Below are positions 6,050 through 60,612 of a DNA stretch of 64,000 nt, piece after piece (position 1 is the stretch's first letter; the number at the start of each line of letters is the position of its first letter). The translations under genes were made by a program, and so were the position numbers. The notes under the pieces are model-generated. The model was given only the letters and a program-made list of their open reading frames with translations. It had not been told where the DNA came from and searched no databases. Source of the DNA: an uncultured Christensenella sp. (lineage in GTDB: Bacteria > Bacillota > Clostridia > Christensenellales > UBA1242); assembly GCA_949841595.1 (NCBI GenBank), contig CATKZB010000001.1, positions 170,418-234,417 on the forward strand, given 5' to 3'.

Positions 6050-6499
6050 ATGGATCAAAAAGAACAACTCACAAAGTATCTTAATGCAGTATATCAAAAC
6101 ACAAGGACTGCAGTTCAATCAATCGAGGATATAATCTTGAAAGTGCAAGATAACGAACTTATCAACGAGCTTTCAAAAGAGCAAGATGAATATTCTTGCC
6201 TTGCAAAAGAGTGCGAAAACTTTGCAAAAGCAGAAAAAATCGAAGATTTAAAAGACAACAACTGGATAGAAAAAACAAAGCTTTGGACAAGCATCAATCT
6301 CGGAACAATGATGGACAAAAGCACCAGAAATATTGCTGAAATGATGTTACTTGGGACTTTCATGGGCATTGTCACCTGCATTAAGGACAAAGATGACCAC
6401 AAAAATATCTCGCCAGAACTTGATGAAATTCTTGATAAATTATATAATTTTGAAAGAAATAATATTGACAGATTAATTCCTTTTTTAAAAGAAAACTAA
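6050..6499 (+). CDS. Hypothetical helical protein
   Basis: ORF 5990..6499 trimmed to the ATG at 6050, which is preceded by AAGGAG. No motif recognised. Confidence 0.5.
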   Translation: MDQKEQLTKYLNAVYQNTRTAVQSIEDIILKVQDNELINELSKEQDEYSCLAKECENFAKAEKIEDLKDNNWIEKTKLWTSINLGTMMDKSTRNIAEMMLLGTFMGIVTCIKDKDDHKNISPELDEILDKLYNFERNNIDRLIPFLKEN

Positions 6500-10960: not shown

Positions 10961-11020
10961 AAAAAAACTCCTTTTCGCTTTAGTTTTTTGCAAAAAAGAG
11001 TGTTTTATACCTATTGAAAA

Positions 11021-18374: not shown

Positions 18375-20648
18375 ATGAATTTTTACCAAATAATCACACA
18401 TAATAGGGAAATGAAGAAATTTGTCAAAATATGTCTAATTTCATTTGCATTGCTTGTCACTTTCACTTTTGTTTTCAGTGGAACATTTGTGACAATCAAT
18501 TATATCAAATATCAATCAATCCCACTTGATGCAGAAGCATTGAGCAATCCTTCACTTTCAATTGAGATTTACACCAAAGAGAACAAACCTATGAAGGAAG
18601 AAAATCAATTTAATGGCGATTTTTGCAAACTTGAAGACTTAAATTCATATACAAAACAAGCATTTTTGTCAATTGAGGACAAAGAGTTTTACAACCACAA
18701 TGGACTCAACAAAAAGCGTATTGCCAAAGCATTCCTCACAAACTTGAAAACAATGAGTTTGAAAGAAGGCGCATCAACTATAAGCCAACAACTTATCAAA
18801 AACACTCATCTTTCCAACGAAAAAACTTTTGAAAGAAAACTCAAAGAAATGGCACTTACAAGAAAACTTGAAAAAAACTACACAAAAGATGAGATTTTGG
18901 AATGCTATTTAAACGTGATTTTCTTCGGAAACAACTGTTATGGGCTTGAAAATGCTTCAAAATATTATTTCAACAAAAATGCAAAAGACTTAACTTTGTC
19001 TGAAAGTTGCACTTTGGCAGGAATAATCAAATCCCCAGCAAAATATTCCCCAATTTCAAATTATGAAAATTGTTTGAAAAGAAGAAATCTGATTTTAAGC
19101 GAAATGGAAAAAGATGGACATATTTCTGTCGATGAAAAAATAACGGCACAAAATCAGCCAATAAAGCTTGATATAACACCAAGAAGTGTCAACAAAATAA
19201 ACACTTACTCTCAAGCCAGCATTGATGAAGCGTCAAAGATTTTAGGACTTCCGGCTAAGCAATTGGCAATTGGTGGTTACAAAATTCACACCTATTGCAA
19301 TGAAGAAAAACAAGAAAATTTAAAACAGGCTCTTGAAAAAAATCAACTTGAAGACATTGACAGTGCAGGAATCGTCATTGATGCCGACACGTATGGAGTT
19401 TCAGCTTATTATGGAAACAGCAGTTATAAACTTATGGACATAAAACGTCAACCTGCTTCTTGCTTAAAACCAATCATGGTCTATGCTCCTGCATTAAATG
19501 AAGATGTGATTTCCCCTGCAACACAAATTTTGGACGAACCTATCAAAATAGGAAATTACGAACCCAGCAATGTAAACAAAAAATTTGTGGGCTATGTTTC
19601 GGCTACTGAAGCAGTCAAAAATTCAATGAACATACCAGCAATCAAAGTTCTAAGTTACATTGGCATTGACACTGGCAAACAATATGCTGAAAAAATGGGA
19701 ATATCTTTTGATGAAAAAGATGACAGTTATTCTCTTGCTTTGGGAGGAATGACCTATGGCGTCAATTTAAAAGATTTGACAAGTGCCTACACAACTTTTG
19801 CAAACAAAGGTGAATATGACAAAACAACTTTCATTCAATACATAACTGACAAAAACAATAAACTCGTCTACATTCACCGTCCACAACCTAGAATGGTGCT
19901 AAGAGAAGACAGCTCTTATCTTATGACAAACATTCTTCAAGAAGCTGCAAAAACAGGGACTGCACGAAAATTATCAGATATTTCAAACACAGAAATTGCT
20001 TCAAAAACCGGAACAGTCGGCAAAAAAGATGGAAACACAGACGCATATAACATCACCTACACCCCTGAAGAAGTTGTTGGCGTTTGGTATGGAGATTTAA
20101 CAAATCAACCTGCACCTATCACAAGTGGAAATCAACCAACAGAAGTTGTGAAAAGTTATATCTCATCTCAAGAATATGAAACAAAATCTTTTGACATACC
20201 TTCTTCTGTCACAACAGTAAAAATAGATGCTCTTGAAAAGGAAGAAAATCACAGACTTGTGCTTGCCAGTCCATATGCACCAGAAAGATATACAGAAACT
20301 TTCCTTTTCTCAAGATTTAACACTCCAACAGAAGTTTCACAAAACTTTGTTGAAAAACCACAAATTTCAGCCGAATGTAAAACAGAAAACAACCAAATTG
20401 TGATTTCTCTTCGCCCACAAAGACATCTGGAATATCAAATTTACAAAGATAACATCCCTTATCAAACAATAAAAGACAAACAAGAATATTTGACCATTCG
20501 TTTGCCTTTCAATGAAAAAGAAACCAACATCAAAATAACAGCAAACTATGCAAACTTAGCAAATTCGGATTTTGAAACTGAAAAAAACTTTACTTTGTCA
20601 AACACAAAAACAACAAACCAATCAAACAGTGACAAATGGTATATCTAA
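18375..20648 (+). CDS. Class A penicillin-binding protein (glycosyltransferase plus transpeptidase)
   Basis: GT51 motifs AFLSIEDKEFYNHNGLN and GASTISQQL. Transpeptidase motifs SCLK (SxxK) and KTGT. The likely true start is ATG 18411 (MKKFVKICLISF signal anchor). Confidence 0.88.
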   Translation: MNFYQIITHNREMKKFVKICLISFALLVTFTFVFSGTFVTINYIKYQSIPLDAEALSNPSLSIEIYTKENKPMKEENQFNGDFCKLEDLNSYTKQAFLSIEDKEFYNHNGLNKKRIAKAFLTNLKTMSLKEGASTISQQLIKNTHLSNEKTFERKLKEMALTRKLEKNYTKDEILECYLNVIFFGNNCYGLENASKYYFNKNAKDLTLSESCTLAGIIKSPAKYSPISNYENCLKRRNLILSEMEKDGHISVDEKITAQNQPIKLDITPRSVNKINTYSQASIDEASKILGLPAKQLAIGGYKIHTYCNEEKQENLKQALEKNQLEDIDSAGIVIDADTYGVSAYYGNSSYKLMDIKRQPASCLKPIMVYAPALNEDVISPATQILDEPIKIGNYEPSNVNKKFVGYVSATEAVKNSMNIPAIKVLSYIGIDTGKQYAEKMGISFDEKDDSYSLALGGMTYGVNLKDLTSAYTTFANKGEYDKTTFIQYITDKNNKLVYIHRPQPRMVLREDSSYLMTNILQEAAKTGTARKLSDISNTEIASKTGTVGKKDGNTDAYNITYTPEEVVGVWYGDLTNQPAPITSGNQPTEVVKSYISSQEYETKSFDIPSSVTTVKIDALEKEENHRLVLASPYAPERYTETFLFSRFNTPTEVSQNFVEKPQISAECKTENNQIVISLRPQRHLEYQIYKDNIPYQTIKDKQEYLTIRLPFNEKETNIKITANYANLANSDFETEKNFTLSNTKTTNQSNSDKWYI

Positions 20649-34753: not shown

Positions 34754-34969
34754 TTAAAACAATCTGCTCCCAAAAGGTTTTATTCTACTTGCTGGAATTT
34801 CAACATTAAAAACAAAAGTGTCTCCTTCTCGTTTATATCTAACAACCAAATCATCAGAAAGCAAAAAGAAATTTCGTGCAATTGGCGTTATTTCTTCTTT
34901 TAAAATTTCAGCAACTTGTTCCAAATTTGTAAACTTATCTTTTATTATCAATTCATTTATTCTGTTCAC
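34754..34969 (-). CDS. minE: MinE-like topological specificity factor lacking the N-terminal membrane-targeting helix
   Basis: GTG start with AAGGAG 5 nt upstream, 9 nt after the minD stop. NRINELIIKDK resembles the (K)ERLxLILxxDR contact helix. DLVVRYKREGDTFVFNVEIP resembles the C-terminal beta-region. Confidence 0.6.
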   Translation of the reverse strand: MNRINELIIKDKFTNLEQVAEILKEEITPIARNFFLLSDDLVVRYKREGDTFVFNVEIPASRIKPFGSRLF

Positions 34970-34978
34970 AATCGCTCC

Positions 34979-35770
34979 TTAAATATATTTTTTGATATTT
35001 CGTTTGAAATAGCCCATGAGCCCACGATATTTGTAAGTGCAATCATAAATCTTTTTACATCCGTTATGTATGTTTTCTGATAACAGTGTAAAAGCTCTTG
35101 CACTTTCTCCATCGGTCATAATTCTTCCATCCGACGACATCTTCGACACCGTGTCATCTTCTGGAATTACGCCCAAAAGAGGTATATTCATAGCTTTAAC
35201 TATACTTTCGATATTCATCATTTCGCCAGAAAGAAGAAGATCTCCCCTCATTCTGTTGATAACAAGACCTTTACTTTCAATGTTATATTCACTTAAGAGT
35301 CCAACGACCTTATCTGCATCTCTGATGCTTGAAAGGTGTGGCGTGACAACAATCAAAGCTTCATTTGCAGGAAAAACTGCTCGATGAAAGCCCAACTCAA
35401 CTCCTGCAGGGCAATCAATCAAGATATAATCAAAAGAATGATCGATGATGTCGATGATGTTTTTTATATGTTCGCCTGTGATTCTGCTGGATGAATAAGT
35501 GTGAGATGAAGGCAAAAGATAAAGGGAAGGATAATTTGGATCTTGAATAAGAGCTTGTCTCACCCGACACTTCCCTGACACAACATCAGTTACATCAAAA
35601 ATGACCTGTCTTTCCAATCCCATGATAACATCAAGGTTGTTTAAACCAATATCAACATCCATCAAAACCACACGAAAGCCCAACCTTGAAAGATAGACTC
35701 CCAAATTTGCACAGACGGTTGTTTTTCCAACACCACCTTTGCCACTTGTTACAACAATTTTTCTTGCCAT
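34979..35770 (-). CDS. minD: Septum site-determining ATPase MinD
   Basis: Deviant Walker A SGKGGVGKTT, and a C-terminal amphipathic helix GLMGYFKRNIKK. Start trimmed to ATG 35770, which has an AGGAG SD. Confidence 0.9.
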   Translation of the reverse strand: MARKIVVTSGKGGVGKTTVCANLGVYLSRLGFRVVLMDVDIGLNNLDVIMGLERQVIFDVTDVVSGKCRVRQALIQDPNYPSLYLLPSSHTYSSSRITGEHIKNIIDIIDHSFDYILIDCPAGVELGFHRAVFPANEALIVVTPHLSSIRDADKVVGLLSEYNIESKGLVINRMRGDLLLSGEMMNIESIVKAMNIPLLGVIPEDDTVSKMSSDGRIMTDGESARAFTLLSENIHNGCKKIYDCTYKYRGLMGYFKRNIKKYI

Positions 35771-35861
35771 AAACATTCTCCTGCAATTATTATAAAATGG
35801 CAAAGAAACATTCTCAAAACAACAAAGATAGCATAATTTACGAAAAATGTCTGATATTGTA

Positions 35862-35887
35862 AAAACAAAAAAAGACCAAATGGTCTT
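35862..35887 (-). terminator. Terminator after the serine hydrolase gene
   Basis: AGACC-aaat-GGTCT, followed on the minus strand by TTTTTTTGTTTTT. Confidence 0.55.
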
Positions 35888-36429
35888 TAAATATATTTCA
35901 ACAATTCAGGAAAAGTTGTATATCCTGCTGCTTTGTTAAAATGTCCTGCCTCACCTATGCAAATTTGTTTTCCTTCAACTAAGTCAGCAAACTCTTTTAA
36001 TTTTTCAAACTTAACATATGGATCAGTTTTTGAATAATAGCAATATGTTTCTGTGGCATGAGACTTAAATTCCGAAAGTCTTGTTGTATACATAGTGCAA
36101 TTTACTTCATCAAAATCTTCATCAAGATTTAAATATTGATTAAATCCTGCAACAAACACAACTCTTTTCACTTTCAAATCATTTTTAATCAAATATTTTG
36201 CCAAAAACACACAAGAAATTGAATGGCAGAAAAACACACTGTCTTCATTAATAAATCTTTTGACTGAATTTAGAACCATCTCCCAATTATAATAATTCTG
36301 TTTGCCACAACCAATCGGGAAATCTAAATTGAAGACCTCTTTATTCCCCCCCCGTAAGGTTTTTTCCAGCCAAGGGAACCAATTTTCTTGGCTTGAACCG
36401 AAACTGCCATGAATGATGAAATAATTCAT
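35887..36429 (-). CDS. YdeN/RBBP9-type serine hydrolase (alpha/beta fold)
   Basis: IIHGSFGSSQENWFPWL, nucleophile region FFCHSISC, SKTDPYV, and GHFN. Contains a G8 tract (36346..36353). Confidence 0.7.
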   Translation of the reverse strand: MNYFIIHGSFGSSQENWFPWLEKTLRGGNKEVFNLDFPIGCGKQNYYNWEMVLNSVKRFINEDSVFFCHSISCVFLAKYLIKNDLKVKRVVFVAGFNQYLNLDEDFDEVNCTMYTTRLSEFKSHATETYCYYSKTDPYVKFEKLKEFADLVEGKQICIGEAGHFNKAAGYTTFPELLKYI

Positions 36430-36438
36430 ATTATTCTC

Positions 36439-37440
36439 CTATAATTTTTTCAAAATACTATCCAAAAGTTGTTGATCAGACAAAAGTTTTCCAGCACCCA
36501 AAATGGTCACATTTTCCAAATCTTCACTGATTTCAACAGGATAATTCAGATTTTTTCTTAAATATTCTTCCAACCCTTGCATTTTTGCACAACCACCAAC
36601 AATCAAAATTTTGTTGTTGATGATGTCAGCCACAACTTCTGGTGGAAGAGTGTTTATTGTGGTGTCAATTGCTCTGACAATTTCACTATAAAATGGCTCA
36701 ATAGCTTTTCTTAAATCGGCAGACAAGATAACCACTGACTTTGGAGACTTGGTTCGTGCATCCACCCCAGTAACTTCCATATTAAGGGTGTCGTTTGAAT
36801 ACAAGCTTCCCACTTCGTTTTTAAGAGTTTCTGCTGTAGGCAGTCCTATAACCAGTTCTTGTGTATAAGCCAAAAAGTTGACAATTGAAGCATCAATACT
36901 TTTTCCACCAACACCTAAGGTTGCACCTTTAAGGATGTTTGACATGTTTATAACAGCGATTTCTGTGCCAGTTCCACCTATGTCAACAATCATGTTAACT
37001 TTTGAACTATCAATATTTCTTCCTTCACCCACACAAGAGCAAAGCACTGAAGGAACAAGCTCAACATATCCCAAATTTGCACCTTCGCAAACACTTAATA
37101 TGTTCTCTTTTTCCCTTGCAGAAAGTCCACAAGGTACAATAAAAATTGCATTGTCCTCATGTTGTTTATATCCAACTTTGGTTAAAAAGTGCTTTAAGAG
37201 AATCACAGAATATTCATAATTTGAATGTTCTCCACTTGCCATAGGCGTGAAAATTTCCACATTATCTTTGGTTTTTCCAACCAATTTCTTTGCATCAATT
37301 CCCATAGCAATAACTTTATAGCCATCATCTGTTGGCTCTGCAGCAATCAAAGTTGGTTCTTTGAGTGCCAACCCCTCATCTTTGACATAAATGCAAGTGT
37401 AAGCTCCACCCATTTCAATCGCAAACTTAATTTTTTTCAT
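36439..37440 (-). CDS. mreB: Divergent MreB-family actin-like protein
   Basis: By-eye alignment to B. subtilis MreB along the whole length: IEMGGAYTCIYVKDEGLALKEPTLIA, MIVDIGGTGTEIAV, ILIVGGCAKMQGLEEYL. The phosphate-1 motif DLGTANT is changed to EMGGAYT. Confidence 0.75.
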   Translation of the reverse strand: MKKIKFAIEMGGAYTCIYVKDEGLALKEPTLIAAEPTDDGYKVIAMGIDAKKLVGKTKDNVEIFTPMASGEHSNYEYSVILLKHFLTKVGYKQHEDNAIFIVPCGLSAREKENILSVCEGANLGYVELVPSVLCSCVGEGRNIDSSKVNMIVDIGGTGTEIAVINMSNILKGATLGVGGKSIDASIVNFLAYTQELVIGLPTAETLKNEVGSLYSNDTLNMEVTGVDARTKSPKSVVILSADLRKAIEPFYSEIVRAIDTTINTLPPEVVADIINNKILIVGGCAKMQGLEEYLRKNLNYPVEISEDLENVTILGAGKLLSDQQLLDSILKKL

Positions 37441-37452
37441 AAGCATCCCCTT

Positions 37453-38673
37453 TTAAAGAGTTATTGTAATACTTTTTAAAGCAGAACATTCTCCACTTTG
37501 AATTTCTTTATAGTTAAATGTCACTTCTTTGCCTTGTTTCAACTGATAAATATTATCCAAAAGAGTTATTTTGTCTAATATTTCTATTAGACCATCATCA
37601 TAGCTCACAGACACAATAACACTGCCAGCTTTGATAATTTGATCATCATAAGAAAAATCATCAAACAAAAACAAACCCGACATCTCTGAAGTGGAGAAAT
37701 AAGTTATATTTTCGTTATAAGGATGCCACGCATTATTAAAATAGAATTTATCTTGATTGGTTGTGCTTGTTTCTGAACAATCCAAATAATAACTAAGCTC
37801 TATTTGGTCAAAACCAATCAGGTTTTCTTTAATTGGATTTGTGTAATATTTGTCAGCATAATAATTGTTTACCACATCATCAATAAAGTCTTTTGCACCT
37901 TCAGCATTCATAACAAAATAATAACCATATTCAAGTTCTTCTGTTATAGTCAATTCATAAGAAAATCCGAGCAAATTCGCTTGTCTATCAAACACTGCAC
38001 CACCATTGTAAGCAGTTGCATCCATGTCAAGATCAACAACAAAACCATCTTCATGAACAAAATCTATCGCCTTTGTTCCGTCAACTGTTTTTGAAACTCC
38101 CAGTGCATAATCAGCGCCATAAATAGTGCCAATCCAAATCTTTTTGTCAGAAACAGGATTAGAAACCGAAATAACTCGCTCATCTTCCCTTGAAGCAAGA
38201 AAATTTTCATTGACATTTACAAAAGGAATCTTGATTTCTTCCCCTTCTTTTGCAACACTTTCGCACTTTAAAATCGCAAGATTATAATCCTTCTCAGCAA
38301 AAAGCAACTTTCCTGAATAAATCCTTCCTGAAGTTGTAAGAATCTTGATGACAGTGTCTTCTTTACAATCCCTAAATTCACTGTAAGGTGCAACAACGAA
38401 ACCATCTTGCCTTATATTGACACCAACAACACTTTTTTCTTCTTCATCAAAATTTTCGTTCTGAATTTTAAAATTTATTTCGACAGTGGCTTCAGCATAC
38501 ATATCTCCAACTGCCACATCTGAAGAAAATGGCCAAAAGCTCAATTTTAATGAAATGTTATATGGAGAGATGAAATAAAAATAAACCACTGTAAAAAGAT
38601 AGCACAAAATAACTGCTATCACAGTAAACAGTATTATCCAAATGATTTTAGAATTATTTTTTTTCTCTTCCAT
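37453..38673 (-). CDS. Membrane-anchored trypsin-fold (HtrA/S1C-like) protein, probably non-catalytic
   Basis: N-terminal TM helix. GFVVAPYSEF...GRIYSGKLLFAEKDYNLAILK...DATAYNGGAVFDRQANLLGFS aligns by eye with HtrA segments (IVTNNHVV, DLAVLKI, GNSGGAL). His, Asp and Ser are replaced by Ser, Asn and Asn. Confidence 0.55.
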   Translation of the reverse strand: MEEKKNNSKIIWIILFTVIAVILCYLFTVVYFYFISPYNISLKLSFWPFSSDVAVGDMYAEATVEINFKIQNENFDEEEKSVVGVNIRQDGFVVAPYSEFRDCKEDTVIKILTTSGRIYSGKLLFAEKDYNLAILKCESVAKEGEEIKIPFVNVNENFLASREDERVISVSNPVSDKKIWIGTIYGADYALGVSKTVDGTKAIDFVHEDGFVVDLDMDATAYNGGAVFDRQANLLGFSYELTITEELEYGYYFVMNAEGAKDFIDDVVNNYYADKYYTNPIKENLIGFDQIELSYYLDCSETSTTNQDKFYFNNAWHPYNENITYFSTSEMSGLFLFDDFSYDDQIIKAGSVIVSVSYDDGLIEILDKITLLDNIYQLKQGKEVTFNYKEIQSGECSALKSITITL

Positions 38674-40166: not shown

Positions 40167-40225
40167 TTTCTTCTCCTTAATGCAAATATTCTAAAAACAA
40201 AAAGATGCTTTTGTGAAAAAAGCTC

Positions 40226-40396
40226 TTATTTATCAAGATCAATAGCTTCCACTGGACAACTTGCTTGACAAGCTCCACAGCGTATACATTTTTTTCTGTC
40301 AATAACTGCCTTTCCGTCAGTACCAAAAGAAATAGCTCCAACTGGACAAATTGCCACGCATGTTCCACAACTTATACATTTGTTTTTGTCAACCAT
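40226..40396 (-). CDS. 2x[4Fe-4S] ferredoxin (56 aa)
   Basis: Own translation: MVDKNKCISCGTCVAICPVGAISFGTDGKAVIDRKKCIRCGACQASCPVEAIDLDK, with two CxxCxxCxxxCP motifs and an AAGGAG SD. Below the 60-aa ORF-track cutoff. The track ORF 40177..40368 is its off-frame shadow. Confidence 0.9.
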   Translation of the reverse strand: MVDKNKCISCGTCVAICPVGAISFGTDGKAVIDRKKCIRCGACQASCPVEAIDLDK

Positions 40397-40451
40397 CTTT
40401 TTCTCCTTATTTTATGTACTAAATAATAACATAAAAATAAGATTTTGTAAA

Positions 40452-40814
40452 CTATTTTTTGAATACTTTTATAAATTCCACAACTGCCAAACAACACAAG
40501 AATCCACCAAAAATCATTTTTAAAATTTTGGAAGGCAAAAATGACATCAAAACTGCTCCCAAAACTGAGAAAATAACTCCAAAAAAAATTATCCAAAAAA
40601 GGTTTTTTGTCACAATATATCCATTGCGATAATGGATGTAAATTGAAAATATTGCCATAACCAAAAAACTTAATAAATTAAGTCCTTGAGAAAGTTTTTG
40701 ATCAAAGCCCAAAAATATAGTCAAAATAGGGATAAGAAGCGTTCCACCTCCCATGCCTAAACCACCGAAAATTCCTGACAAAAAGCCAGCTAGCATATAA
40801 AAAAAATAAATCAT
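40452..40814 (-). CDS. Half-size TauE/SafE (TSUP) family membrane protein
   Basis: 120 aa with about 4 TM helices. LAGFLSGIFGGLGMGGGTLLIPIL is the family N-terminal motif. Start trimmed to ATG 40814, which has a GGGAG SD. Confidence 0.7.
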   Translation of the reverse strand: MIYFFYMLAGFLSGIFGGLGMGGGTLLIPILTIFLGFDQKLSQGLNLLSFLVMAIFSIYIHYRNGYIVTKNLFWIIFFGVIFSVLGAVLMSFLPSKILKMIFGGFLCCLAVVEFIKVFKK

Positions 40815-40884
40815 TGTTTTCTCCCGAAAATTTATTATTATTTTCTTCAAAAAACAAAAAATTATCTAAGAAAAAAATTTATTT

Positions 40885-41118
40885 TTAATATGCTTCATTC
40901 ATCAAAATTTTTAATAAAAATTCTATTAACAAAATTGAATGTTTTTTGACAATTTCCATATAAAAAATTTCCAAATCAAGAAACATATTTCGTTGATCTT
41001 TGCTTAAATTTTGAACAAATTGTTGTTCAAGATTTTCAAATTCTTGTGGCTGTTCAACTTTTTCTTTTGACTCACTTTCTTCAAAAATTTTGTAAAACAT
41101 TTCTGCAACAGTTTTCAC
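40885..41118 (-). CDS. Hypothetical 77-aa helical protein
   Basis: GTG start with AAGGAG 8 nt upstream. No motif recognised. Confidence 0.45.
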   Translation of the reverse strand: MKTVAEMFYKIFEESESKEKVEQPQEFENLEQQFVQNLSKDQRNMFLDLEIFYMEIVKKHSILLIEFLLKILMNEAY

Positions 41119-41161
41119 TTTTTAGTCTCCTTTTTTTCTTTTGTTTTATCGTTAAAAATAA

Positions 41162-41178
41162 AATTTTTTCGACTTAAT
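41162..41178. repeat. 17-bp perfect direct repeat, copy 1 (AATTTTTTCGACTTAAT)
   Basis: Identical to 41262..41278, exactly 100 bp away. Contains a near-0A box (TTCGACT). Confidence 0.85.
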
Positions 41179-41235
41179 TCATCAACACTTCGACAATTTT
41201 CGTCATTTTTTCTCAACAATCTTCAAACATCGTCT

Positions 41236-41263
41236 ATTCTACATAAAAATTTTATCAAGTCAA
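41236..41263 (-). promoter_or_regulatory. Sigma-A-type promoter candidate for the 77-aa gene / TauE-half operon
   Basis: Minus strand reads TTGACT (41263..41258)-16 nt-TAGAAT (41241..41236). It is flanked by TGNCGAA-like heptamers. Confidence 0.45.
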
Positions 41264-41278
41264 TTTTTTCGACTTAAT
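41262..41278. repeat. 17-bp perfect direct repeat, copy 2
   Basis: Identical to 41162..41178. Confidence 0.85.
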
Positions 41279-41335
41279 GTTACATGCATAAAACATTTTT
41301 CGACAAAAAAGGATACAAAACACTGTTTCTTATCT

Positions 41336-41740
41336 TTAAAACAGCAATCTTATGCCACCTGCCAGCATGACAAAAACAAAAATTATTCTGACAATTTTTT
41401 CGGGCAAAAATTTGAGTGCAAATGAGCCTACAATTCCACCCAAAAGCACACCTGTTCCCACAGTTAAAAAAGGAATTGTTTCAAGGTTTCCACTCAAAAG
41501 ATAAATGACTGCACTTATGAAGGAAATTGGAAGAATAACCACGATTGCTGTCGCATGAGAATATTTGTTGGGTAAATGTAGAACCTTTTCTAGTAAAGGA
41601 ACGCAAATCATTCCCCCTCCTCCACCAAAAAAACCATTGATAAATCCAATCAATGCACCACACAGTGCCAAAATAAATTTCTTCTTTGCAGGCAACTTGT
41701 TTTCTTTCTCTTTTTTCTTGGTTGTTTTCTTTGTTTTCAT
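41336..41740 (-). CDS. Half-size TauE/SafE (TSUP) family membrane protein
   Basis: 134 aa with a basic N-terminus, then GALIGFINGFFGGGGGMICVPLL and about 4 TM helices. Confidence 0.7.
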   Translation of the reverse strand: MKTKKTTKKKEKENKLPAKKKFILALCGALIGFINGFFGGGGGMICVPLLEKVLHLPNKYSHATAIVVILPISFISAVIYLLSGNLETIPFLTVGTGVLLGGIVGSFALKFLPEKIVRIIFVFVMLAGGIRLLF

Positions 41741-41834: not shown

Positions 41835-44800
41835 ATGAAAAAACTTAAAAAATTCAAAAGCAAAATATTGATGTTTATCTTTGCACTTGTGTTGCCTTTG
41901 TCTGCAACTTCAGTAGTTTATACAGTAAGTGAAGTTAAGAATGCAAATGCAGATAATGCTGCATCAAATTATTATTCTGGGTATATGAAAGAAGTTTCAC
42001 TTTCAAACAACAACTTCAATTCTGGTTCTTCAACCTATTCAATCAGCACATCTCTTTCTGGTTGGACTGGCCTTATGAAAGACAGAAAGACCACTGCTGG
42101 AATAATCAACACTGGAAACACCTTTCAAAACTACATGACAGGCACTTATCGCCTTTCAAACAACCCTCTTGCCAAAGCAAACGACAAGAATATTTTGATG
42201 ATAAATTCTAAGACTGCAGATTCAAATGATTATTCAACTGCAAGACAAGGATATAAATCAAATATAGTGAATTTGGAAGCAAATTCATTCTATTCTTTTC
42301 AAGTCTCTTTCAAGAGCGACACAAATTACAATTCTTACACAACTTATGTTCAACACGGAACAGTTGATGAAGATTTAAATTTGACAAAATCAGCTTTTGA
42401 AGAAAAGAAAGATGGAAAAATCAAAAGTTTTGGAGACCATATTTCATTCACATACAAAAGCAAAACTTATTATCTCCACAAAGAACTGATTGATGGTGCA
42501 AACACAACACAAAATCTCACAGATGTATCTTTCTTCTATGAAGATGATGAATATGTTGGTTTGATGTATAATGACTCTCCTGTTTATGTTGCCAAATCAG
42601 ATGTTGAAAAAGTGGAAGTCAATGAAGAAACACAATACAATATAGCTTCTGGCAAAAAAACATACACTTGCAACATTGAGTATGACACAGCAAATTCTAG
42701 ATATAATGTGAAAGCTGGAACAGCTTATTACACAACAAAAACAGAATATTCTTCACTAAACGACTATGTTTTTGGCTCAATTTATTTGTCAGGTCTTAAA
42801 GACAGTGAAGGAAATGCAGTAAAAGCAGATTATGTTCAAGTGACATCAAAAGAATGGGTAACTTTCTATTTCTTTGTTGCAACAGGAAACCAAGCCCAAA
42901 GTGTGACATTGGATCTTTGGCTTGGAACAAACCAAACTGGCCATGACAGCAGTGGCGTTGTGTTCTTTGACGATTGCCATGTTTATCAATACAGCGAAAA
43001 CACTTTCTGGAAAACATACAAATCTTATTTCGGAAAAAATTATACTCAAGAAATAACAACTTCAAGTGGCACAACAACTCAAGTTTTTGATTGCACAAAC
43101 TTGGTTGATCTTAGAAATGCAACAAATATTGAATACCCAACCCACAACTTTGACTTTGAAGAAGGAATCTTCAATAATGATGGTTCTGCTCTTAAAAACT
43201 GGACAAAGAGTGGAAATGGAAATGCTCAAATTTTTGACTCAAGAAATCCTCAAGCTTTTAAAAGCGCAACAGGTGGATATGATTTTGTAGGCTCAAATCT
43301 CTCATGTGAAGTAAACATCAATGGAGAAGCAATATCAATCACCCCAAACAACTATGTCTTAGGTTTATGGTCAAAAAATGGATATGTTAAAGTAAAATCA
43401 AATGCTGTTAGCATAGATGCAAATCAAGTATGCAAAATCAAAGCAACCTACAAAATTTCTGAAATAACCAGTGGAAATGTATATATGTTTGTAGAAGAAA
43501 ATGACAACATTCTGACTTCTTACAACCTTACAAAAGATCAATATACACTTGCAGAAGAAGCTTCAAGCACTGCAGTAACAACAAATGGATCAAGCAGTTT
43601 CTCAAACAGCTATGGAACAATAGAATTCTATGTTAAAGGTGGAAATCTCTATAATTCTTCCGTTAACATCTCACTTGGACTTGGCAAAAGCAATGAAACT
43701 GCAACTGGTTGTGTTGTGTTTGACGATATTACTATAGAAAAAACAGCATCATCAGATTTTGATAATGCATCAAACAAACTTGAACTTGACACATACACAT
43801 CATCCCTTTCAATTGCAAATGGAAACTTTAACAAAGTAACTTCAGAACAAGACAGCACCTATCCTCTTGCCCCTCAAAACTGGAAGATTGAAAAAGGAAC
43901 TGGCTTCACCTTTGGTGGCGTTGTCAACACAGAAGCCAAAGAATATGCAAAATATGTTGAAAAATACAATCAACTAAAAGCTGATAATGTGGATGATTTG
44001 AAAAACAACTATTATTGGGCAAGCTATGCAAATCCAAAAAACAGCTACAACTCTACTTCCGAACCTGACAATGTTATGATGCTTGCAAACATAACAAGTG
44101 CTTGGCAAAAATTGACTTCTGACAATTTCACACTTTCTGCAAACAGCACAAACAAGCTTACATTTAAATATAAAACTTACAACTCAAACAATGGAATTAT
44201 TGCGACCTTGTATAACAAAGATGGCGTAAAACTTTTTGAATCACAAAAACTAAATTCAAATGGACAGTGGAATGATTATGAAATTTATCTCAAATCATTC
44301 TCTGGAGCAAGTGAAGTTTATTTAACAATAGATTACGGCACTGAAACAGACAAAGCTGAAGGTTTTGCTTATTTCGACAATTTTGATATAGAATCAATTG
44401 ATGGAAGCGTCTTTGAAAACAAATCTAGCACTTCTGAAGGAAATGGAGACGCCTTTGCTGTTGTAGATATGTCAGATTTCTATCTAAAATTGCCTACAAA
44501 CAACATCACTAATGACTTAACAACTTCTAATACTCCTGCATTTACTGGAGCTTACGGCAGTGGAAACTCAAGCATTGGTGGTATTATCAAAAGTGAAGGT
44601 CTTGGAGAAATCTTTAAGTTGGATGAAGAAAACAAAAACGTTTTCTACATCACAAATCATGGTGTTGGCTCTTACACACTCCAATCAAATTTCAACTTGG
44701 ATTTGGAAGCAAACAAATACTATGAATTGTCATTCAAACTTAAAACAAATTTCAACTACACAAATGCTGATGTGAGTTTGGATAAAGATAAAACATACAA

Positions 44801-45680
44801 TTATGGTGCAACCTTTGGTTTGACAGGTTTTGATTTTATGAAACAACTTGTAGCAAACGAAGAAACTTATCAGACTTACACAATGTATTTCAACCCTAGT
44901 GAAGCTGCTTCTGCAAAACTCTATTTAGCACTTGTAAGTGACAGCATTGAAACTACAGGTTCTATGGCAATCTATGACATTGCATTTGCTGAAGTTGAAG
45001 AATCAGTTTACACAAGTGCTGTTGAAGCTTGTGCTGCAACAGATTATGACATCAACAAAGACAAAATCATGATTTCAAAAGCTGAAGGCAAAACTGATGA
45101 CGACAACGACGACGATAACAATGGTGACAACACAGACACCACCCCAAGCACAAATGGAGATCTCAATTGGTCAATTTTGATTGCATCAATAATCACTGGC
45201 GCTGCAATTGTAATAGCATTAATTGGCTGGGCAATGAGCAAAGTTAAAATCAAAAAAATAGAAAGAAAGAGAAAAGAATCTTATGACAGAAAAGAAAGCT
45301 TGCATGTTGATGCCATAAAGATCAAAGCAAGAAAACAAAGAGATTCTGACATCGAAGCTGTAAAAACTGACATTGAAAAGTTCCAAAAAGAACTTGACAA
45401 AATGGAAAAAGAACACAAACAAAAAGTGCTTACTCTCAGAGAAAAAGATAAAGGCACAGTTTCAAAAGAAACAGACAGAGAATTTAAGCAATTTGCAAAG
45501 AAGAGAACTGTTATTGCAGAAAAGATTGACTCTTTAAACAAACAAATTGAAGAAATAAATTCACCTGAATATCTTTTGAATCTTGAAAGAAAAATTTTCG
45601 CTCAAGATGAAATGAAACAAAAAGAACTTTCAAAGGTTTCAAAAAAATCTAAAGATGAAAAAGATTCTTCTAAAAAATAA
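41835..45680 (+). CDS. Giant type-I membrane surface protein with CBM_4_9-like jelly-roll repeats and a basic coiled-coil cytoplasmic tail
   Basis: Signal peptide (MKKLKKFKSKILMFIFALVLPLSA). At least four modules open with NxNF(N/E)xG...W and close with hydrophobic-FDD/FDN motifs (VVFFDDCHVYQY, CVVFDDITIEK, FAYFDNFDIESI, MAIYDIAFAEV). These are followed by a D/N-rich linker, the TM WSILIASIITGAAIVIALIGWAM, and a ~150-aa K/E-rich tail. Confidence 0.8.
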   Translation: MKKLKKFKSKILMFIFALVLPLSATSVVYTVSEVKNANADNAASNYYSGYMKEVSLSNNNFNSGSSTYSISTSLSGWTGLMKDRKTTAGIINTGNTFQNYMTGTYRLSNNPLAKANDKNILMINSKTADSNDYSTARQGYKSNIVNLEANSFYSFQVSFKSDTNYNSYTTYVQHGTVDEDLNLTKSAFEEKKDGKIKSFGDHISFTYKSKTYYLHKELIDGANTTQNLTDVSFFYEDDEYVGLMYNDSPVYVAKSDVEKVEVNEETQYNIASGKKTYTCNIEYDTANSRYNVKAGTAYYTTKTEYSSLNDYVFGSIYLSGLKDSEGNAVKADYVQVTSKEWVTFYFFVATGNQAQSVTLDLWLGTNQTGHDSSGVVFFDDCHVYQYSENTFWKTYKSYFGKNYTQEITTSSGTTTQVFDCTNLVDLRNATNIEYPTHNFDFEEGIFNNDGSALKNWTKSGNGNAQIFDSRNPQAFKSATGGYDFVGSNLSCEVNINGEAISITPNNYVLGLWSKNGYVKVKSNAVSIDANQVCKIKATYKISEITSGNVYMFVEENDNILTSYNLTKDQYTLAEEASSTAVTTNGSSSFSNSYGTIEFYVKGGNLYNSSVNISLGLGKSNETATGCVVFDDITIEKTASSDFDNASNKLELDTYTSSLSIANGNFNKVTSEQDSTYPLAPQNWKIEKGTGFTFGGVVNTEAKEYAKYVEKYNQLKADNVDDLKNNYYWASYANPKNSYNSTSEPDNVMMLANITSAWQKLTSDNFTLSANSTNKLTFKYKTYNSNNGIIATLYNKDGVKLFESQKLNSNGQWNDYEIYLKSFSGASEVYLTIDYGTETDKAEGFAYFDNFDIESIDGSVFENKSSTSEGNGDAFAVVDMSDFYLKLPTNNITNDLTTSNTPAFTGAYGSGNSSIGGIIKSEGLGEIFKLDEENKNVFYITNHGVGSYTLQSNFNLDLEANKYYELSFKLKTNFNYTNADVSLDKDKTYNYGATFGLTGFDFMKQLVANEETYQTYTMYFNPSEAASAKLYLALVSDSIETTGSMAIYDIAFAEVEESVYTSAVEACAATDYDINKDKIMISKAEGKTDDDNDDDNNGDNTDTTPSTNGDLNWSILIASIITGAAIVIALIGWAMSKVKIKKIERKRKESYDRKESLHVDAIKIKARKQRDSDIEAVKTDIEKFQKELDKMEKEHKQKVLTLREKDKGTVSKETDREFKQFAKKRTVIAEKIDSLNKQIEEINSPEYLLNLERKIFAQDEMKQKELSKVSKKSKDEKDSSKK

Positions 45681-56129: not shown

Positions 56130-59100
56130 TTAGCACCAATAGAAAACTTTTAATGTCCATCTGCTATTTACCTGTAGCCATATATCTTTATCTAAGTTGT
56201 TTATGTTTGCTCCATAATAATTATTATCAGAATTGCTCGAAGCTCGATAATAGCAATTTTCAGATGTTACATAATCACTATCACCACATGCCAAATCATG
56301 TGTAAAATCGGGATTAGCTGTTATCTGACATTCAGCATAACATTGGCTAAATTCGGTAGATGACAAAACTTCTCCTACAATACCTGCAACTTCACTTAAA
56401 TCTTCACAAATCATGTTTGTTTTTGAAGACACAGCAAAGAATTTACAGTCTTTTGCAAGTCCCACTATACCACCAAAACGTGATCTATATTTTTGACTGT
56501 TTTTAATAGACTTACCTTGCAATTCAACAACATTTTCTGCATAATCAAAACTTCCGTTGTCTTCATCATTATAAATATTATGATAAGTTATTTTATTCGT
56601 TTGCAATGTGCAATTGAAGGTGTGAACATAAGAGAATTTAGTATTTTCTGCCTCTGCAACAACTGCCCCCACATTTCCAAATCCAGTGAACTTACAGTCT
56701 TTTATTGTCAAGTTTTTGATAGTTGCGCCGTTGGTATAACCAAACAAACCAATGTCAGAGATTTTGTCTCCATCATTGTCTCCACCAATAAATTTAAGAT
56801 TTGAAATCATATGGTGATTTCCGTCATAAACACCTTTGAATGGGTGAGCTTCGCTTCCGATTGGATTGAAGATTTTGCCAAACATATTAATATCTGCAGT
56901 TTGCCTAATTAAACAACTTTCAAAAGTTTCGCCACCATTAACCATTTGACTTAACTTTATCAAATCATCAGCATTGTTAATTTCATAAACACCATTCACA
57001 GCAGTTAAATTTCCAGAAACGTTTGTATAATCTTTTAAATATTTAGCAGTTATTGTTACATCTGAAAGTGAGCCATTATTAGCAAATTTGTATTCTTTGT
57101 TTAATGTCAGCAACTTATCGCCATCACTACCACACACGTAAAGACCTATGTATCTATATCCCTCTGGTACATTTTCTGATTCTTTTACAGTTACTGTAGC
57201 AAAATAGTATGGTTTATCGTAATTTTTATAATCACACTCAAATGTTGGCTTATATCCACCAACACTCGACTCCAAGTTTACTGAATAATTACTTACACTA
57301 AAGAAATAATATAGATCAATTGTGTTATTCCAATCTGAAATATTATTTCCTTTAATTTCTGATACATATTCGGTCAATAGATCTCCCGACCAAACTATAG
57401 ATTCAATATTTTGTCCATTTTGTTTTCTCCAATCATTAAGATAGCCTTTAAAGTCTGCACTTAAATCAGTAAATTCAAAATATCCTTGATTTGCTTTTCT
57501 TTCAACTTTAATATCTCTATTATCAACTGTAAATTTAATAGCAGTTGGAGTTACAGTTCCACCTAAATGGTTTTCATCAGATTTAAAGTCATATTTGCTA
57601 TCAAATTTATCAACATATGTATAGATATTGACAGTATATTCAATAGCTTCTCTTGAAATCTGCACAGTAAATTCATTGACATCTATTAATCTAAATTCTA
57701 ACAATTTATCAAAAGGATCAACTTGTTTATCGTCTCCTATTGAAATAATCCATCTAAAATCAGGATTTGTTGAATCTCCAAAATTTACACACTCAGGTTG
57801 TAATCCAACCTTTAACTCAGAATCACCATCCGACAAAGTCACATTTTCTTCATTGGATTTTAAATTTGTAATTTTAAAACTATATTTATATCCCAATTCA
57901 AATTTGTTTTCAAAGTCGACAGTTTTGTGCATATCATTTGTAACTAGAAAATCAGTCCATGAATCAAAACCACTCCCAGTACCATCCCAAAAAGAAACGT
58001 GTATTTTATAATTTACTTTCTTAAACAAGAAAACCAATTGACCAGCTTCACCATCTTGATATTCATATGAAAAAGTATCATAAAAATAAACTCCTAAAGG
58101 TTCTTCTCTAGGTTTAAAACCATGACGAAGTTTAGCTTCCGTTGCACTATCTTCATATGCAATACCTGCAAATTGATAACCAAATTTTGGCGTAACTTTA
58201 TATTTAATATTATCTTTATAATATATTTCATCGATTGAACAATCATTTATTTCCACTGTTCCAAAATCAGAACTAGAACCGTCAATCAACTTCGTTTTAA
58301 TATCTAAAGAAATTGATTTGTTTTCTAATGTAAACCTTACTACAAATCCATTAACTTGTTTTGTGAAACTAAGATACAAACTATCAGCTTGTGGCACGAC
58401 ACCACCAAAAGATTGAAAGCTAGTGTTATATGATTTACTAATTTCTGCAGAAATATATTTAAGCTTTTCTGTGTTGTAAGTTAGATTTAACAGCTGTTTG
58501 TATCTCAGTTCAATTCTATAGTTAACTCCTCTTAAAAAGTAAATATTTTTAGAGTCAAGGTTTTCAAATTTAGATTTCCATTCTATCTTACCTTTATTAT
58601 CACAAAATCTAACAGATGTCTTTATATTAAATTTTTCTTTTTCTTCTTCAGATAATGTTATGGTTCTATTTGGAAGTTTAACTTGGATAGTATTTATATC
58701 AGCGTCTGAAACGGCAGAACTAGGGACTAACAAACTATTGCCACCTTCTGTCTGTGAAATTTCTTTTGAAACTGCCGAGCTATTATCAAAATAAAAATTT
58801 ACGATTGGAGACATAAACCATGTCTTTTCAGTGCCTTTATGGGTTTCTGGATATGTGTCACCATCTTCGTCAGTATATTCACTTTCATACATCTTATGAG
58901 TGCCAATTTCATTTGACCATGTCAAAACTCCTCTATAAGAAGAATTGTTATTGTAGTTCCATCGCCCCAAATACCAATTGTTATAGTTGTTTAAAAAACT
59001 ATACTCAATTAAATCACCTCTCCATGTTTTATAGCCAAAATGTTGAAAAGAAACCGATACAGATTTTGAATCGTGATTTAAACATTTGTCAATTGGTTTG

Positions 59101-60578
59101 TTATAATCTGTGAAATAATTATTTTTCAAAACATTATTAACAAGGTCACTTGAATCTGTTGTTATTCTGCCAATTATTCTTCCATAAAGGGAATTTGTTT
59201 CTCCTTGCATTTTTCCAGCATTAATGCAATTTGCAACAAGATAGTGAGAATAGTATTCTGTCCAAGAACCTATACCTAAAACTCCCATATGCCATTCAGA
59301 GCCACCAATTTTACCTACAATGCCACCAACATTATTTCCTTGCACATTGATTGTGGCATAATTTAAACATCTGAATATAAGACTATGGTTTGTAACTGAT
59401 CCAACAATTCCTCCGACATTTTCAATTGATGCATTTGAATTTGTTATATTTCCGTAATTTACACAATCATTGATAATTAAAGGGTTGCTATCATTAGTTG
59501 CAGCTGTGCCTATTATTCCTCCTATTGAAGATGTACTATTTAAATTTTTATATTGGACTATTTCAATATCCCCAAAATTAGAACATCCAGTGATAGTTTT
59601 GGTTTTATAATCCATTGCATTTGAAACTAACCCAGCCACATAAAAATGGTTAACTCTCGATATTTTTATATCTGAATAATTATGTGAATTCGAAATGTTT
59701 AAACTGTTTCTTGAAAGACCAATCAACCCACCAAAATAAGCAGTGTCCCAAATTTCAAATCTTACATCGCTTCCAGTGCTATAAAACCTAAATTCATCAC
59801 CATAATACGCGCATGAATATACTGTACAGTCAGATGCAATTCCTAAAATTCCACCAGCATATATGTAATCTAAATTCCAATTGTCCCAAGCTGCTGCACG
59901 AATAATCACATAAGAATAGCAATAACGCATTGTTGTAGACTTTGCATTCCCCACAAAACTTCCAATATGCAATTCATCTGTTCCGTTACCTTCATTAGAA
60001 TATTTAAAAAACTCATAACATCCATCTATTATAAGTGAGTCAATCAAAGCATTTTCTGTTTTTCCAAACAAACCATATGCATTATTATAACGATTTTGGG
60101 AAAGATCTGTTGCTGTTTTATGCATGAAAATCCCAGAAATAGTATGGCTATTTCCATAAAAGCTGCCAGTAAAAGAAAAATCATTTCGCCCTGAGCGACT
60201 TCCTATTGGAGTCCAATAATGAGAAGATAAATCTATATCTCTTTGCAAATAAACACTAGCATTAGAATAATATGCATCTCCAATCTTGCTTCCGTTATTA
60301 ACACACCTTGCAAATTCTGACAATTCTTCAGCAGTCACAATATCGACTCTCATATACGATCCAGAAACACTAATTTGATTTCCCACTTCCAAATTGGCAC
60401 CATAATCACTCCAGTCTCCACTTGGAGTGGCTTTGACTTCTGTTTCTTGTTGATCTTGATCTGAACCTTGATTTTGAAAAATATCTGATGAATTGTCAAC
60501 AAAAAACGCTGTGCCACAAACAAACGAAAGTGACAAGAAAAAAGCCATGATAATTGAAAAAATTATCTTTTTCTTCAT
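56130..60578 (-). CDS. Giant secreted GLUG-motif beta-helix protein (~1482 aa)
   Basis: Signal peptide MKKKIIFSIIMAFFLSLSFVCGTA. Many GLUG-type repeats (IGGIIGTA, VGGIVGSV, VGGIVGKI, FGGLIGLS, AGGILGIA, FGGIVGLA, VAGIVGEV) lie in N- and C-terminal modules, each preceded by ...PIG...F.G.f.GN.H.ISG/N... The central ~700 aa match no family. Start trimmed to ATG 60578. Confidence 0.8.
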   Translation of the reverse strand: MKKKIIFSIIMAFFLSLSFVCGTAFFVDNSSDIFQNQGSDQDQQETEVKATPSGDWSDYGANLEVGNQISVSGSYMRVDIVTAEELSEFARCVNNGSKIGDAYYSNASVYLQRDIDLSSHYWTPIGSRSGRNDFSFTGSFYGNSHTISGIFMHKTATDLSQNRYNNAYGLFGKTENALIDSLIIDGCYEFFKYSNEGNGTDELHIGSFVGNAKSTTMRYCYSYVIIRAAAWDNWNLDYIYAGGILGIASDCTVYSCAYYGDEFRFYSTGSDVRFEIWDTAYFGGLIGLSRNSLNISNSHNYSDIKISRVNHFYVAGLVSNAMDYKTKTITGCSNFGDIEIVQYKNLNSTSSIGGIIGTAATNDSNPLIINDCVNYGNITNSNASIENVGGIVGSVTNHSLIFRCLNYATINVQGNNVGGIVGKIGGSEWHMGVLGIGSWTEYYSHYLVANCINAGKMQGETNSLYGRIIGRITTDSSDLVNNVLKNNYFTDYNKPIDKCLNHDSKSVSVSFQHFGYKTWRGDLIEYSFLNNYNNWYLGRWNYNNNSSYRGVLTWSNEIGTHKMYESEYTDEDGDTYPETHKGTEKTWFMSPIVNFYFDNSSAVSKEISQTEGGNSLLVPSSAVSDADINTIQVKLPNRTITLSEEEKEKFNIKTSVRFCDNKGKIEWKSKFENLDSKNIYFLRGVNYRIELRYKQLLNLTYNTEKLKYISAEISKSYNTSFQSFGGVVPQADSLYLSFTKQVNGFVVRFTLENKSISLDIKTKLIDGSSSDFGTVEINDCSIDEIYYKDNIKYKVTPKFGYQFAGIAYEDSATEAKLRHGFKPREEPLGVYFYDTFSYEYQDGEAGQLVFLFKKVNYKIHVSFWDGTGSGFDSWTDFLVTNDMHKTVDFENKFELGYKYSFKITNLKSNEENVTLSDGDSELKVGLQPECVNFGDSTNPDFRWIISIGDDKQVDPFDKLLEFRLIDVNEFTVQISREAIEYTVNIYTYVDKFDSKYDFKSDENHLGGTVTPTAIKFTVDNRDIKVERKANQGYFEFTDLSADFKGYLNDWRKQNGQNIESIVWSGDLLTEYVSEIKGNNISDWNNTIDLYYFFSVSNYSVNLESSVGGYKPTFECDYKNYDKPYYFATVTVKESENVPEGYRYIGLYVCGSDGDKLLTLNKEYKFANNGSLSDVTITAKYLKDYTNVSGNLTAVNGVYEINNADDLIKLSQMVNGGETFESCLIRQTADINMFGKIFNPIGSEAHPFKGVYDGNHHMISNLKFIGGDNDGDKISDIGLFGYTNGATIKNLTIKDCKFTGFGNVGAVVAEAENTKFSYVHTFNCTLQTNKITYHNIYNDEDNGSFDYAENVVELQGKSIKNSQKYRSRFGGIVGLAKDCKFFAVSSKTNMICEDLSEVAGIVGEVLSSTEFSQCYAECQITANPDFTHDLACGDSDYVTSENCYYRASSNSDNNYYGANINNLDKDIWLQVNSRWTLKVFYWC

Positions 60579-60584
60579 GTTTTT

Positions 60585-60612
60585 ATTATATACAAATTTA
60601 GACAAAAATCAA
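60585..60612 (-). promoter_or_regulatory. Promoter candidate abutting the GLUG-gene ATG (leaderless candidate)
   Basis: Minus strand reads TTGATT-16 nt-TATAAT-aaaaac-ATG. No SD is present. Confidence 0.4.

Follow-up and report, generated by a model that had tools for sequence, protein, structure and literature searches.

Why would bacteria keep an HtrA-like protein whose catalytic residues are gone, and why would they encode it next to mreB? The question is raised by a stretch of 64,000 nucleotides from an uncultured Christensenella sp. (assembly GCA_949841595.1, contig CATKZB010000001.1; the whole 64-kb stretch is called the window below), in which the gene directly upstream of mreB encodes a membrane-anchored protein of 406 amino acids, referred to here as the window protein. 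The original prediction for this gene, made from the letters alone, was a member of the S1C (HtrA/DegP) protease family with all three catalytic residues replaced and with a binding or scaffold role rather than a proteolytic one. We conclude, with high confidence, that the protein is an HtrA-derived pseudoprotease under selection. Further, we favor, as the probable though clearly less secure overall explanation, that it is a type-II anchored pseudoprotease, the positional ortholog of an active HtrA, that has taken on a non-cleaving role.

The window protein has the HtrA (S1C) fold and is homologous to this family. Pfam Trypsin_2, the check that had been proposed for the alignment made by eye, matched it at exactly the gathering cut-off (27.6 bits, E=5.5e-6, residues 84-236), and matched 33 of 33 aligned family members with a best E of 8e-9. 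A single-sequence phmmer search of the PDB returned noise alone (plastocyanin, E=0.22) and hence a family profile was needed; this profile matched Mycobacterium tuberculosis HtrA1 (7w21, E=1.2e-6, profile positions 63-269), followed by Thermotoga maritima HtrA, human HTRA1 and DegS. The single-chain AlphaFold model built on the family alignment reached a predicted local distance difference test score (pLDDT) of 88.4 and a predicted template modeling score of 0.86, and the best 50 Foldseek matches of the full model in the PDB were all HtrA, DegP, DegQ, DegS, Deg1, MucD or PepD chains (best E=3.1e-15, 362-378 columns aligned). Profile-profile alignment (hhalign) of the dead family with 13 relatives that keep an intact triad gave a probability of 99.9 (E=5e-36). 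That is, the alignment by eye agrees with the Pfam, HtrA1-profile, Foldseek and hhalign results, and the similarity to the trypsin fold is significant and far above chance. A search of NCBIfam gave nothing significant (a pilin-like match on the transmembrane helix, E=0.015; MamO, E=0.14), and recurrent LSM and BioY matches (E>=0.003), which fall on a beta-barrel strand or on the transmembrane helix, were taken as spurious.

The rest of the protein is also laid out as in anchored HtrAs. A single N-terminal transmembrane (TM) helix, as originally read, is borne out by a hydrophobic segment at residues 11-35 and a helix at residues 6-35 of the model; by the positive-inside rule, the predicted topology is N-terminus inside and C-terminus outside. 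The juxtamembrane segment that follows (residues 36-62) cannot be aligned to the active relatives, the hhalign match beginning at residue 55. The C-terminus (residues ~284-406) is a PDZ domain, albeit a divergent one that carries an insertion at ~290-330, contrary to the earlier view that it was unlike a PDZ domain: the Foldseek alignments of the full model run through the PDZ domain of protease-plus-PDZ chains, and the hhalign homology extends to residue 393, onto the region of the active relative P0116 that Pfam recognizes as PDZ_2 (29.9 bits vs. a cut-off of 27). Modeled by themselves, the C-terminal 129 residues reached a pLDDT of 95.4 and matched mostly PDZ domains of Prc, HtrA, DegP, DegQ, DegS and PepD at weak E values (0.013-0.7). 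The family profile gave weak matches to the PDZ domain of pneumococcal HtrA (2l97 and 9pno, E ~0.1-0.2), and Pfam PDZ models matched 0 of 33 family members directly. An I-G-F-D loop, in which G287 and D289 are invariant, precedes the insertion, and the insertion itself is common to the long active relatives (P0084, P0087, P0090, P0091, P0096 and P0097).

The loss of the catalytic triad is equally clear. All three motif strings of the original prediction are present in the window protein (FVVAPYSEF at residues 92-100, YNLAILKC at 130-137 and AYNGGAV at 221-227), and the assignment of the catalytic positions rests on two independent alignments, one of the family profile with the HtrA1 sequence and one, by hhalign, with the 13 active relatives. 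Both place Ser98 opposite the catalytic His (GYIV-TNNH / GFVV-APYS), Asn131 opposite the catalytic Asp (D-LAVLK / N-LAILK) and Asn223 opposite the catalytic Ser (GNSGGPL / AYNGGAV), which are the substitutions that had been proposed; His, Asp and Ser are restored by neither. The pattern extends to the orthologs, since a census of 55 non-identical close family members contained no full His-Asp-Ser triad (0/55). The His position holds Ser in 30 members, Asn in 13, Asp in 9, His in 2 and Gln in 1; the Asp position holds Asn in 44 and Asp in 11; and the Ser position holds 11 different residues (Thr in 13, Glu in 13, Ser in 8, Asn in 5, Ala in 4, and others). The oxyanion-hole Gly, two residues before the nucleophile position, is replaced by Ser, Ala, Thr, Asn, Glu or Asp across the family. 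The blocks that are kept are GVNVRxDG, NLAILKC, GGAVFDxxGxLLG and the I-G-F-D loop of the PDZ domain. Because the HtrA fold is conserved without the triad, it is very unlikely, judging from these sequences, that the window protein is a conventional serine protease, and the patchwork of residues at the three positions looks like drift following release from catalytic constraint. In the wider clade, about 1 of 78 representatives at 50% identity (P0048) reads His, Asp and Ser, in an SQLSDGA context and without GNSGG. A few further members (P0035, L016/P0052 and L031/P0056) keep His, or His and Asp, in degenerate motif contexts; together with P0048 they may be intermediate stages of inactivation.

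The dead-triad proteins form a family of their own. A word-indexed search found 34 homologs, all of ~400 amino acids, one of them named (from Candidatus Caccovivens sp.), and 44 representatives reached E<1e-30 in an exhaustive search. When one genome was scanned for each GTDB species, 29 species proved to carry the gene, and every one of these genomes is a metagenome-assembled genome (MAG) of uncultured gut Clostridia; the NCBI MAG GCA_948504575.1 encodes a protein identical to that of the window. Caccovivens is GTDB genus UBA11517, order Christensenellales, family UBA1242 (PMC8035907), and hence the family appears to be limited to uncultured gut Clostridia, specifically (by the one named match) to family UBA1242 of the Christensenellales.

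Within this group the gene is under purifying selection. The pairwise ratio of nonsynonymous to synonymous substitution rates (dN/dS) was 0.07-0.19 in 8 of 8 informative pairs and stayed under 0.31 for every domain, vs. 0.004-0.09 for the neighboring genes. Across the clade, identity to the window was 34-48% for the pseudoprotease vs. 73-93% for the neighbors. Complete, uninterrupted open reading frames (ORFs) of ~390-420 codons, with no internal stop, were present in 26 of 29 loci; in two others the gene runs into the end of the contig, and in one (L028) it is frameshifted. By these codon-level comparisons, the gene is to be regarded as functional and as less constrained than its neighbors. 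The L028 copy (5006-6201) is split by a frameshift near 5473-5482, either a real pseudogene or an assembly error. Separately, the pseudoprotease of L006 vs. L007 (gene 10001-11220) has a synonymous divergence (dS) of 0.78 compared with 0.14-0.44 for the flanking Ppx, MreB and MinD genes, which hints at recombination or allele exchange at a surface-exposed gene.

Where the protein came from is indicated by its next-best relatives in the exhaustive search (E from 1e-18 to 1e-7), which are anchored HtrA-like proteins of 360-460 amino acids with intact motifs (TN[YH]HV, D[LVI]A[IV] and GNSGG). An alignment of 13 of these active sisters (P0079, P0081, P0084, P0086-P0088, P0090, P0091, P0095-P0097, P0116 and P0121) showed His, Asp, Ser and the flanking glycines (G-x-S-G-G) to be invariant. 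In the four of their loci that were fetched, the active gene lies directly upstream of mreB in all four and follows a Ppx/GppA gene in three, and the P0087 locus repeats the whole order of the window (TsaE...TauE-TauE-ferredoxin-Ppx-HtrA-MreB-MinD-MinE). The MreB proteins of these loci are only 33-55% identical to that of the window and, therefore, the linkage between HtrA and mreB is old. In a rough neighbor-joining tree, without support values, the dead family forms a single clade whose sister is the active group linked to mreB. Since the four triad-intact relatives with fetched loci all hold this position before mreB, the dead protein is best understood, from gene order and homology, as the positional ortholog of an active HtrA and not as a degenerate extra copy.

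The loss of the triad was accompanied by a shift in what is conserved. In the dead family, residues 11-62 (the TM helix and juxtamembrane segment) have a mean column identity of 0.61, vs. ~0.33 for the C-terminal barrel and PDZ domain. Compared with the rest of the protein, the anchor scores 0.61 vs. 0.39 in the dead family and 0.22 vs. 0.34 in the active sisters, where it is the least conserved part. Positions conserved solely in the dead clade cluster at residues 25-49 (Y25, F32, P37, I40, K43, W47 and F49), with N86 beside the former His loop in addition.

The operon context is equally stable. Judged on the loci that reach both flanks, from the 29 GTDB species genomes and metagenome contigs, the order is the same in every locus long enough: (two TauE genes and a small ferredoxin), a Ppx/GppA homolog, the pseudoprotease, MreB, (MinD and a MinE-sized ORF). 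The Ppx/GppA homolog adjoins the pseudoprotease in every dead-clade locus that reaches upstream. In the window, the intergenic gaps are 11 nt between the Ppx/GppA homolog and the pseudoprotease and 6 nt between the pseudoprotease and mreB, the mreB ribosome-binding site (AAGGGG) lies directly after the pseudoprotease stop codon, and a consensus scan found no terminator-like site between the three genes. The pseudoprotease is thus probably co-expressed, and translationally coupled, with MreB, as far as can be read from this arrangement. The gene had been described as lying between two actin-fold genes, which holds for MreB downstream; the upstream Ppx/GppA homolog does have the ASKHA (acetate and sugar kinase, Hsc70 and actin) fold but is an enzyme rather than a cytoskeletal protein. 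No mreC or mreD after mreB, and no minC beside minD, was found in ~35 loci, a count that concerns these loci only. The window encodes a class A penicillin-binding protein (18375-20648), a PBP5-type carboxypeptidase and polysaccharide deacetylases and, therefore, the organism makes a cell wall.

What, then, might the protein do? HtrA chaperone and holdase functions survive mutation of the catalytic Ser and, since the cleft-forming blocks and the PDZ loop are retained here, a binding or chaperone role is the most likely one. Under this explanation, the ancestor of the clade would have had an active HtrA directly upstream of mreB, as in related Clostridia; catalytic constraint would then have been lost in the clade of the window, letting the three triad positions drift, while purifying selection kept the fold, the reading frame and the operon position. 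The protein would act without cleavage, through the chaperone or adaptor side of HtrA biology: the substrate cleft and PDZ groove could capture exported envelope proteins by their unfolded or C-terminal segments and hold or present these, and the conserved TM/juxtamembrane segment could be a new contact surface for a membrane partner. That the protein works in this way, as a chaperone or scaffold on the outer side of the membrane, is tentative, and we would not bet on the details; peptide binding, the membrane partner and any link to cell-wall growth are inferred. There are, nevertheless, precedents for its elements. MamO, a pseudoprotease of the HtrA family, has non-catalytic roles (PMC4794232), and two further cases connect HtrAs with wall growth: mycobacterial HtrA, with LppZ, controls or counteracts the cell-wall amidase Ami3 (PMC6538288), and the pneumococcal HtrA "chaperone/protease" is reported to localize to septa and equators (PMC3188284). 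The non-proteolytic binding or scaffold reading of the original prediction is therefore reasonable, because the triad and the oxyanion Gly are lost and the gene is under purifying selection, but its argument from genomic position is weak: triad-intact relatives occupy the same slot and, hence, the mreB neighborhood alone is no argument for the absence of proteolysis.

It is important to note that several observations weigh against this explanation. The ectodomain evolves fast (34-48% vs. 73-93% identity for the neighbors, as above), which one would not usually expect of a precise scaffold. Because the active orthologs sit in the same operon, conserved gene order rather than function could account for the link to MreB. 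Finally, P0048 keeps His, Asp and Ser, and several other dead-clade members keep His or His and Asp; accordingly, some members of the clade may have residual or alternative activity.

Among the alternative explanations, one would make the dead HtrA an elongasome adaptor, that is, an extracytoplasmic structural part of the machinery for MreB-directed wall synthesis, functionally replacing MreC/MreD, with its TM helix contacting membrane partners. The tight coupling of the gene to an mreB that is not followed by mreC or mreD in the ~35 loci is consistent with such a role, as are the MreC-like topology (one TM helix between a short tail in the cytoplasm and a beta-barrel ectodomain) and the dead-clade-specific conservation of the TM/juxtamembrane region, the most conserved part of the protein. 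Taken further, the dead cleft and PDZ domain would hold wall-synthesis or wall-hydrolysis enzymes, an HtrA having been converted into a structural elongation subunit in gut Clostridia with small genomes. However, there is no similarity to MreC in sequence or fold: no Pfam MreC (PF04085) match was obtained at E<=1 and the top 50 fold matches are all HtrA, and homology to MreC was accordingly rejected. Moreover, the active orthologs in the same slot indicate that the linkage predates the loss of catalysis, and the absence of mreC/mreD is known at the mreB locus alone. We consider the adaptor role unlikely, and the extended version equally so.

The second alternative posits a regulatory partner, i.e., a dead subunit that binds or co-assembles with an active HtrA encoded elsewhere and controls its activity or choice of substrate, as in the MamO-MamE pair. 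HtrAs oligomerize through the protease domain, the core blocks of which are retained in the dead family. Further, MamO promotes MamE-dependent proteolysis without a triad of its own (PMC4794232). On the other hand, the dead gene occupies the ancestral slot of the active one instead of being an extra copy, and no second HtrA-like gene is present in the 64-kb window, so that we give this possibility, too, a low probability. On present evidence, the adaptor and the regulator are inseparable from the chaperone or scaffold explanation that we prefer, whereas the remaining two alternatives are disfavored.

The first of these is an active peptidase with non-canonical residues, for example a relocated nucleophile. 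The conserved cleft-forming blocks, the retention of His or His-Asp-Ser by a few members, and the invariant K136 followed by a nearly invariant C137 could all be taken in its favor. Yet the protease domain contains no Ser, His, Asp or Cys that is both conserved and specific to the dead clade, 11 different residues occur at the nucleophile position, and the oxyanion Gly is lost; the dead family as a whole has no conserved His. K136/C137 as an alternative catalytic pair was ruled out by the same Lys-Cys in the active sisters (LAIIKCE), and by homology this pair should lie on a core strand away from the cleft. A peptidase of this kind is, therefore, highly improbable. Least credible of all is a functionless relic, a decaying copy riding in a conserved operon, for which the divergence far in excess of the neighbors and the frameshifted L028 copy might be cited but which the complete, stop-free ORFs in 26 of 29 loci, the confident models (pLDDT 88 and 95) and, decisively for the rejection of a decaying pseudogene, the dN/dS of 0.07-0.19 in 8 of 8 pairs largely refute.

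The features of the gene and its surroundings are collected in the table below.

Features of the HtrA-like pseudoprotease locus (coordinates are those of the window; residues are those of the window protein)
Feature	Coordinates	Strand	Evidence
Pseudoprotease gene (HtrA-family, membrane-anchored), 406 aa + stop	37453..38673	-	ORF list; Pfam Trypsin_2; Foldseek to HtrA/DegP/DegS
Short cytoplasmic tail MEEKKNNSKI, residues 1-10 (predicted)	38644..38673	-	Lys-rich, ahead of the hydrophobic helix
Single TM helix, residues 11-35 (IWIILFTVIAVILCYLFTVVYFYFI), aromatic-rich, unusually conserved	38569..38643	-	Hydrophobicity; helix in the model
Juxtamembrane segment SPYNISLK..WPF..D..MY, residues 36-62, conserved	38488..38568	-	Column identity 0.61
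Chymotrypsin-fold (S1C/HtrA-like) domain and its C-terminal helix, residues 63-272	37858..38487	-	Trypsin_2; profile vs. HtrA1; Foldseek; hhalign
Ser98 at the catalytic His position	38380..38382	-	Two alignments and family census
Asn131 at the catalytic Asp position	38281..38283	-	Two alignments and family census
Asn223 at the catalytic Ser position, in AYNGGAV replacing GNSGGxL	38005..38007	-	Two alignments and family census
Divergent PDZ-type domain, residues 284-406, with I-G-F-D loop	37456..37824	-	Foldseek; hhalign; domain-only model; weak profile matches
~40-aa insertion in the PDZ domain, residues 290-330 (helix, FYFNNAW hairpin, helix)	37684..37806	-	Secondary structure of the model
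Ppx/GppA-family phosphohydrolase homolog, upstream gene, 493 aa	38685..40166	-	Pfam Ppx-GppA and domain III; PDB GppA 6pc1, E=1e-16
MreB, downstream gene	36439..37446	-	Pfam MreB_Mbl, 242 bits; adjacent in every locus long enough
Terminator-like hairpin, first downstream of the Ppx/pseudoprotease/MreB/Ser-hydrolase run	35871..35888	-	Consensus scan, pattern match alone
MinD	34979..35803	-	Pfam CbiA/ParA/MipZ; synteny
MinE-sized ORF	34754..34969	-	Synteny; equivalent ORF in L040 has a weak MinE match

A few further observations concern the neighboring genes. The Ppx/GppA homolog is 73-86% identical within the clade and scores 101 bits vs. an NCBIfam cut-off of 307 for exopolyphosphatase/GppA. 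The start of mreB is probably its second ATG (37440; 333 aa), for which the AAGGGG Shine-Dalgarno sequence is better spaced and with which public gene calls agree. A Ser_hydrolase (PF06821) gene between mreB and minD (35887-36429, minus strand) occurs only in the window and in L007. Upstream (40177-41740, minus strand), the cluster is preceded by a pair of half-size TauE-family genes, of 134 and 132 aa, and by a small ORF resembling 4Fe-4S ferredoxins, an arrangement shared by almost all related loci that extend far enough upstream. Elsewhere in the window, two very large ORFs without a Pfam match are found at 41835-45680 (plus strand, 1281 aa) and 56130-60605 (minus strand, 1491 aa); the former starts with a signal-like segment, carries a TM helix and a Lys/Glu-rich tail at its C-terminus, and is syntenic at only 42-64% identity. 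A 484-aa protein (4488-5942, minus strand) has a weak match to the adenylate/guanylate cyclase catalytic domain (E=7e-9), its N-terminal half being otherwise without an assignment.

As to the significance of these findings, eukaryotes have many pseudoproteases, and Trypsin_2 proteins with a dead triad are not unusual; to our knowledge, however, few bacterial pseudoproteases are understood, MamO being the main HtrA example. The basic finding is thus of a known kind, with MamO as precedent. What is new is a lineage-wide family that is named in no source, the linkage of HtrA to mreB (and to Ppx/GppA), the pair of active and dead positional orthologs, and the transfer of constraint to the anchor. 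Nothing relevant to a linkage between HtrA and MreB came up in a literature search, and this conserved linkage in uncultured gut Christensenellales-like bacteria is undescribed. The same operon slot being active in some lineages and dead in a sister clade represents an unusually clean evolutionary setting, and a natural active-vs.-dead pair for asking about the roles of HtrA besides cleaving; in the dead clade, constraint has visibly shifted away from the active site and onto the membrane anchor. If the link to wall growth is true, an envelope quality-control or scaffold element would have been added to an MreB system without mreC/mreD at its locus. There is also a consequence for annotation, since family members that reach the Trypsin_2 threshold would receive the label "trypsin-like peptidase" although they are almost certainly not peptidases.

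Finally, the window protein can be compared with four known or related systems. The S1C proteases are the nearest: by sequence M. tuberculosis HtrA1 (Rv1223; PDB 7w21, 6ieo) and by fold Escherichia coli DegP (3mh6, 8f0a), DegS (4rqy) and plant Deg1 (3qo6). It resembles these in being anchored at the N-terminus, in having a chymotrypsin-fold domain in which the same blocks are conserved, a C-terminal helix and one PDZ-type domain, and in its extracytoplasmic location, but His/Asp/Ser have become Ser/Asn/Asn, GNSGG has become AYNGG, the PDZ domain carries the ~40-aa insertion, and the TM/juxtamembrane part is the most conserved region. The active mreB-linked relatives are homologous to the dead family across both the protease and the PDZ domain, and their long members share the PDZ insertion; unlike the dead family, they keep the invariant His/Asp/Ser and G-x-S-G-G and have poorly conserved anchors, some of which resemble lipoprotein signals (FTGC, LGSC). 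MreC is likewise bitopic, with a short cytoplasmic tail, a beta-rich ectodomain and a gene beside mreB, whereas the gene of the window lies upstream rather than downstream of mreB and is clearly of HtrA descent.

MamO, in turn, is like the window protein a bacterial protein derived from the trypsin-2/HtrA group, with a degenerate triad and a residue other than Gly at the oxyanion position. It is retained for non-catalytic roles, and TauE-family genes are found near the window gene as well. However, the window protein has no significant match to the MamO model (NCBIfam, E=0.14), and MamO is a fusion with TauE, whereas in the window two separate half-size TauE genes lie two genes upstream; this echo is probably coincidental. 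MamO also has a surface di-His metal site, which the dead family, having no conserved His, is excluded from sharing. The two differ in origin, too: MamO is thought to have arisen from a degenerate extra copy (PMC4794232), while the dead family occupies the ancestral slot itself.

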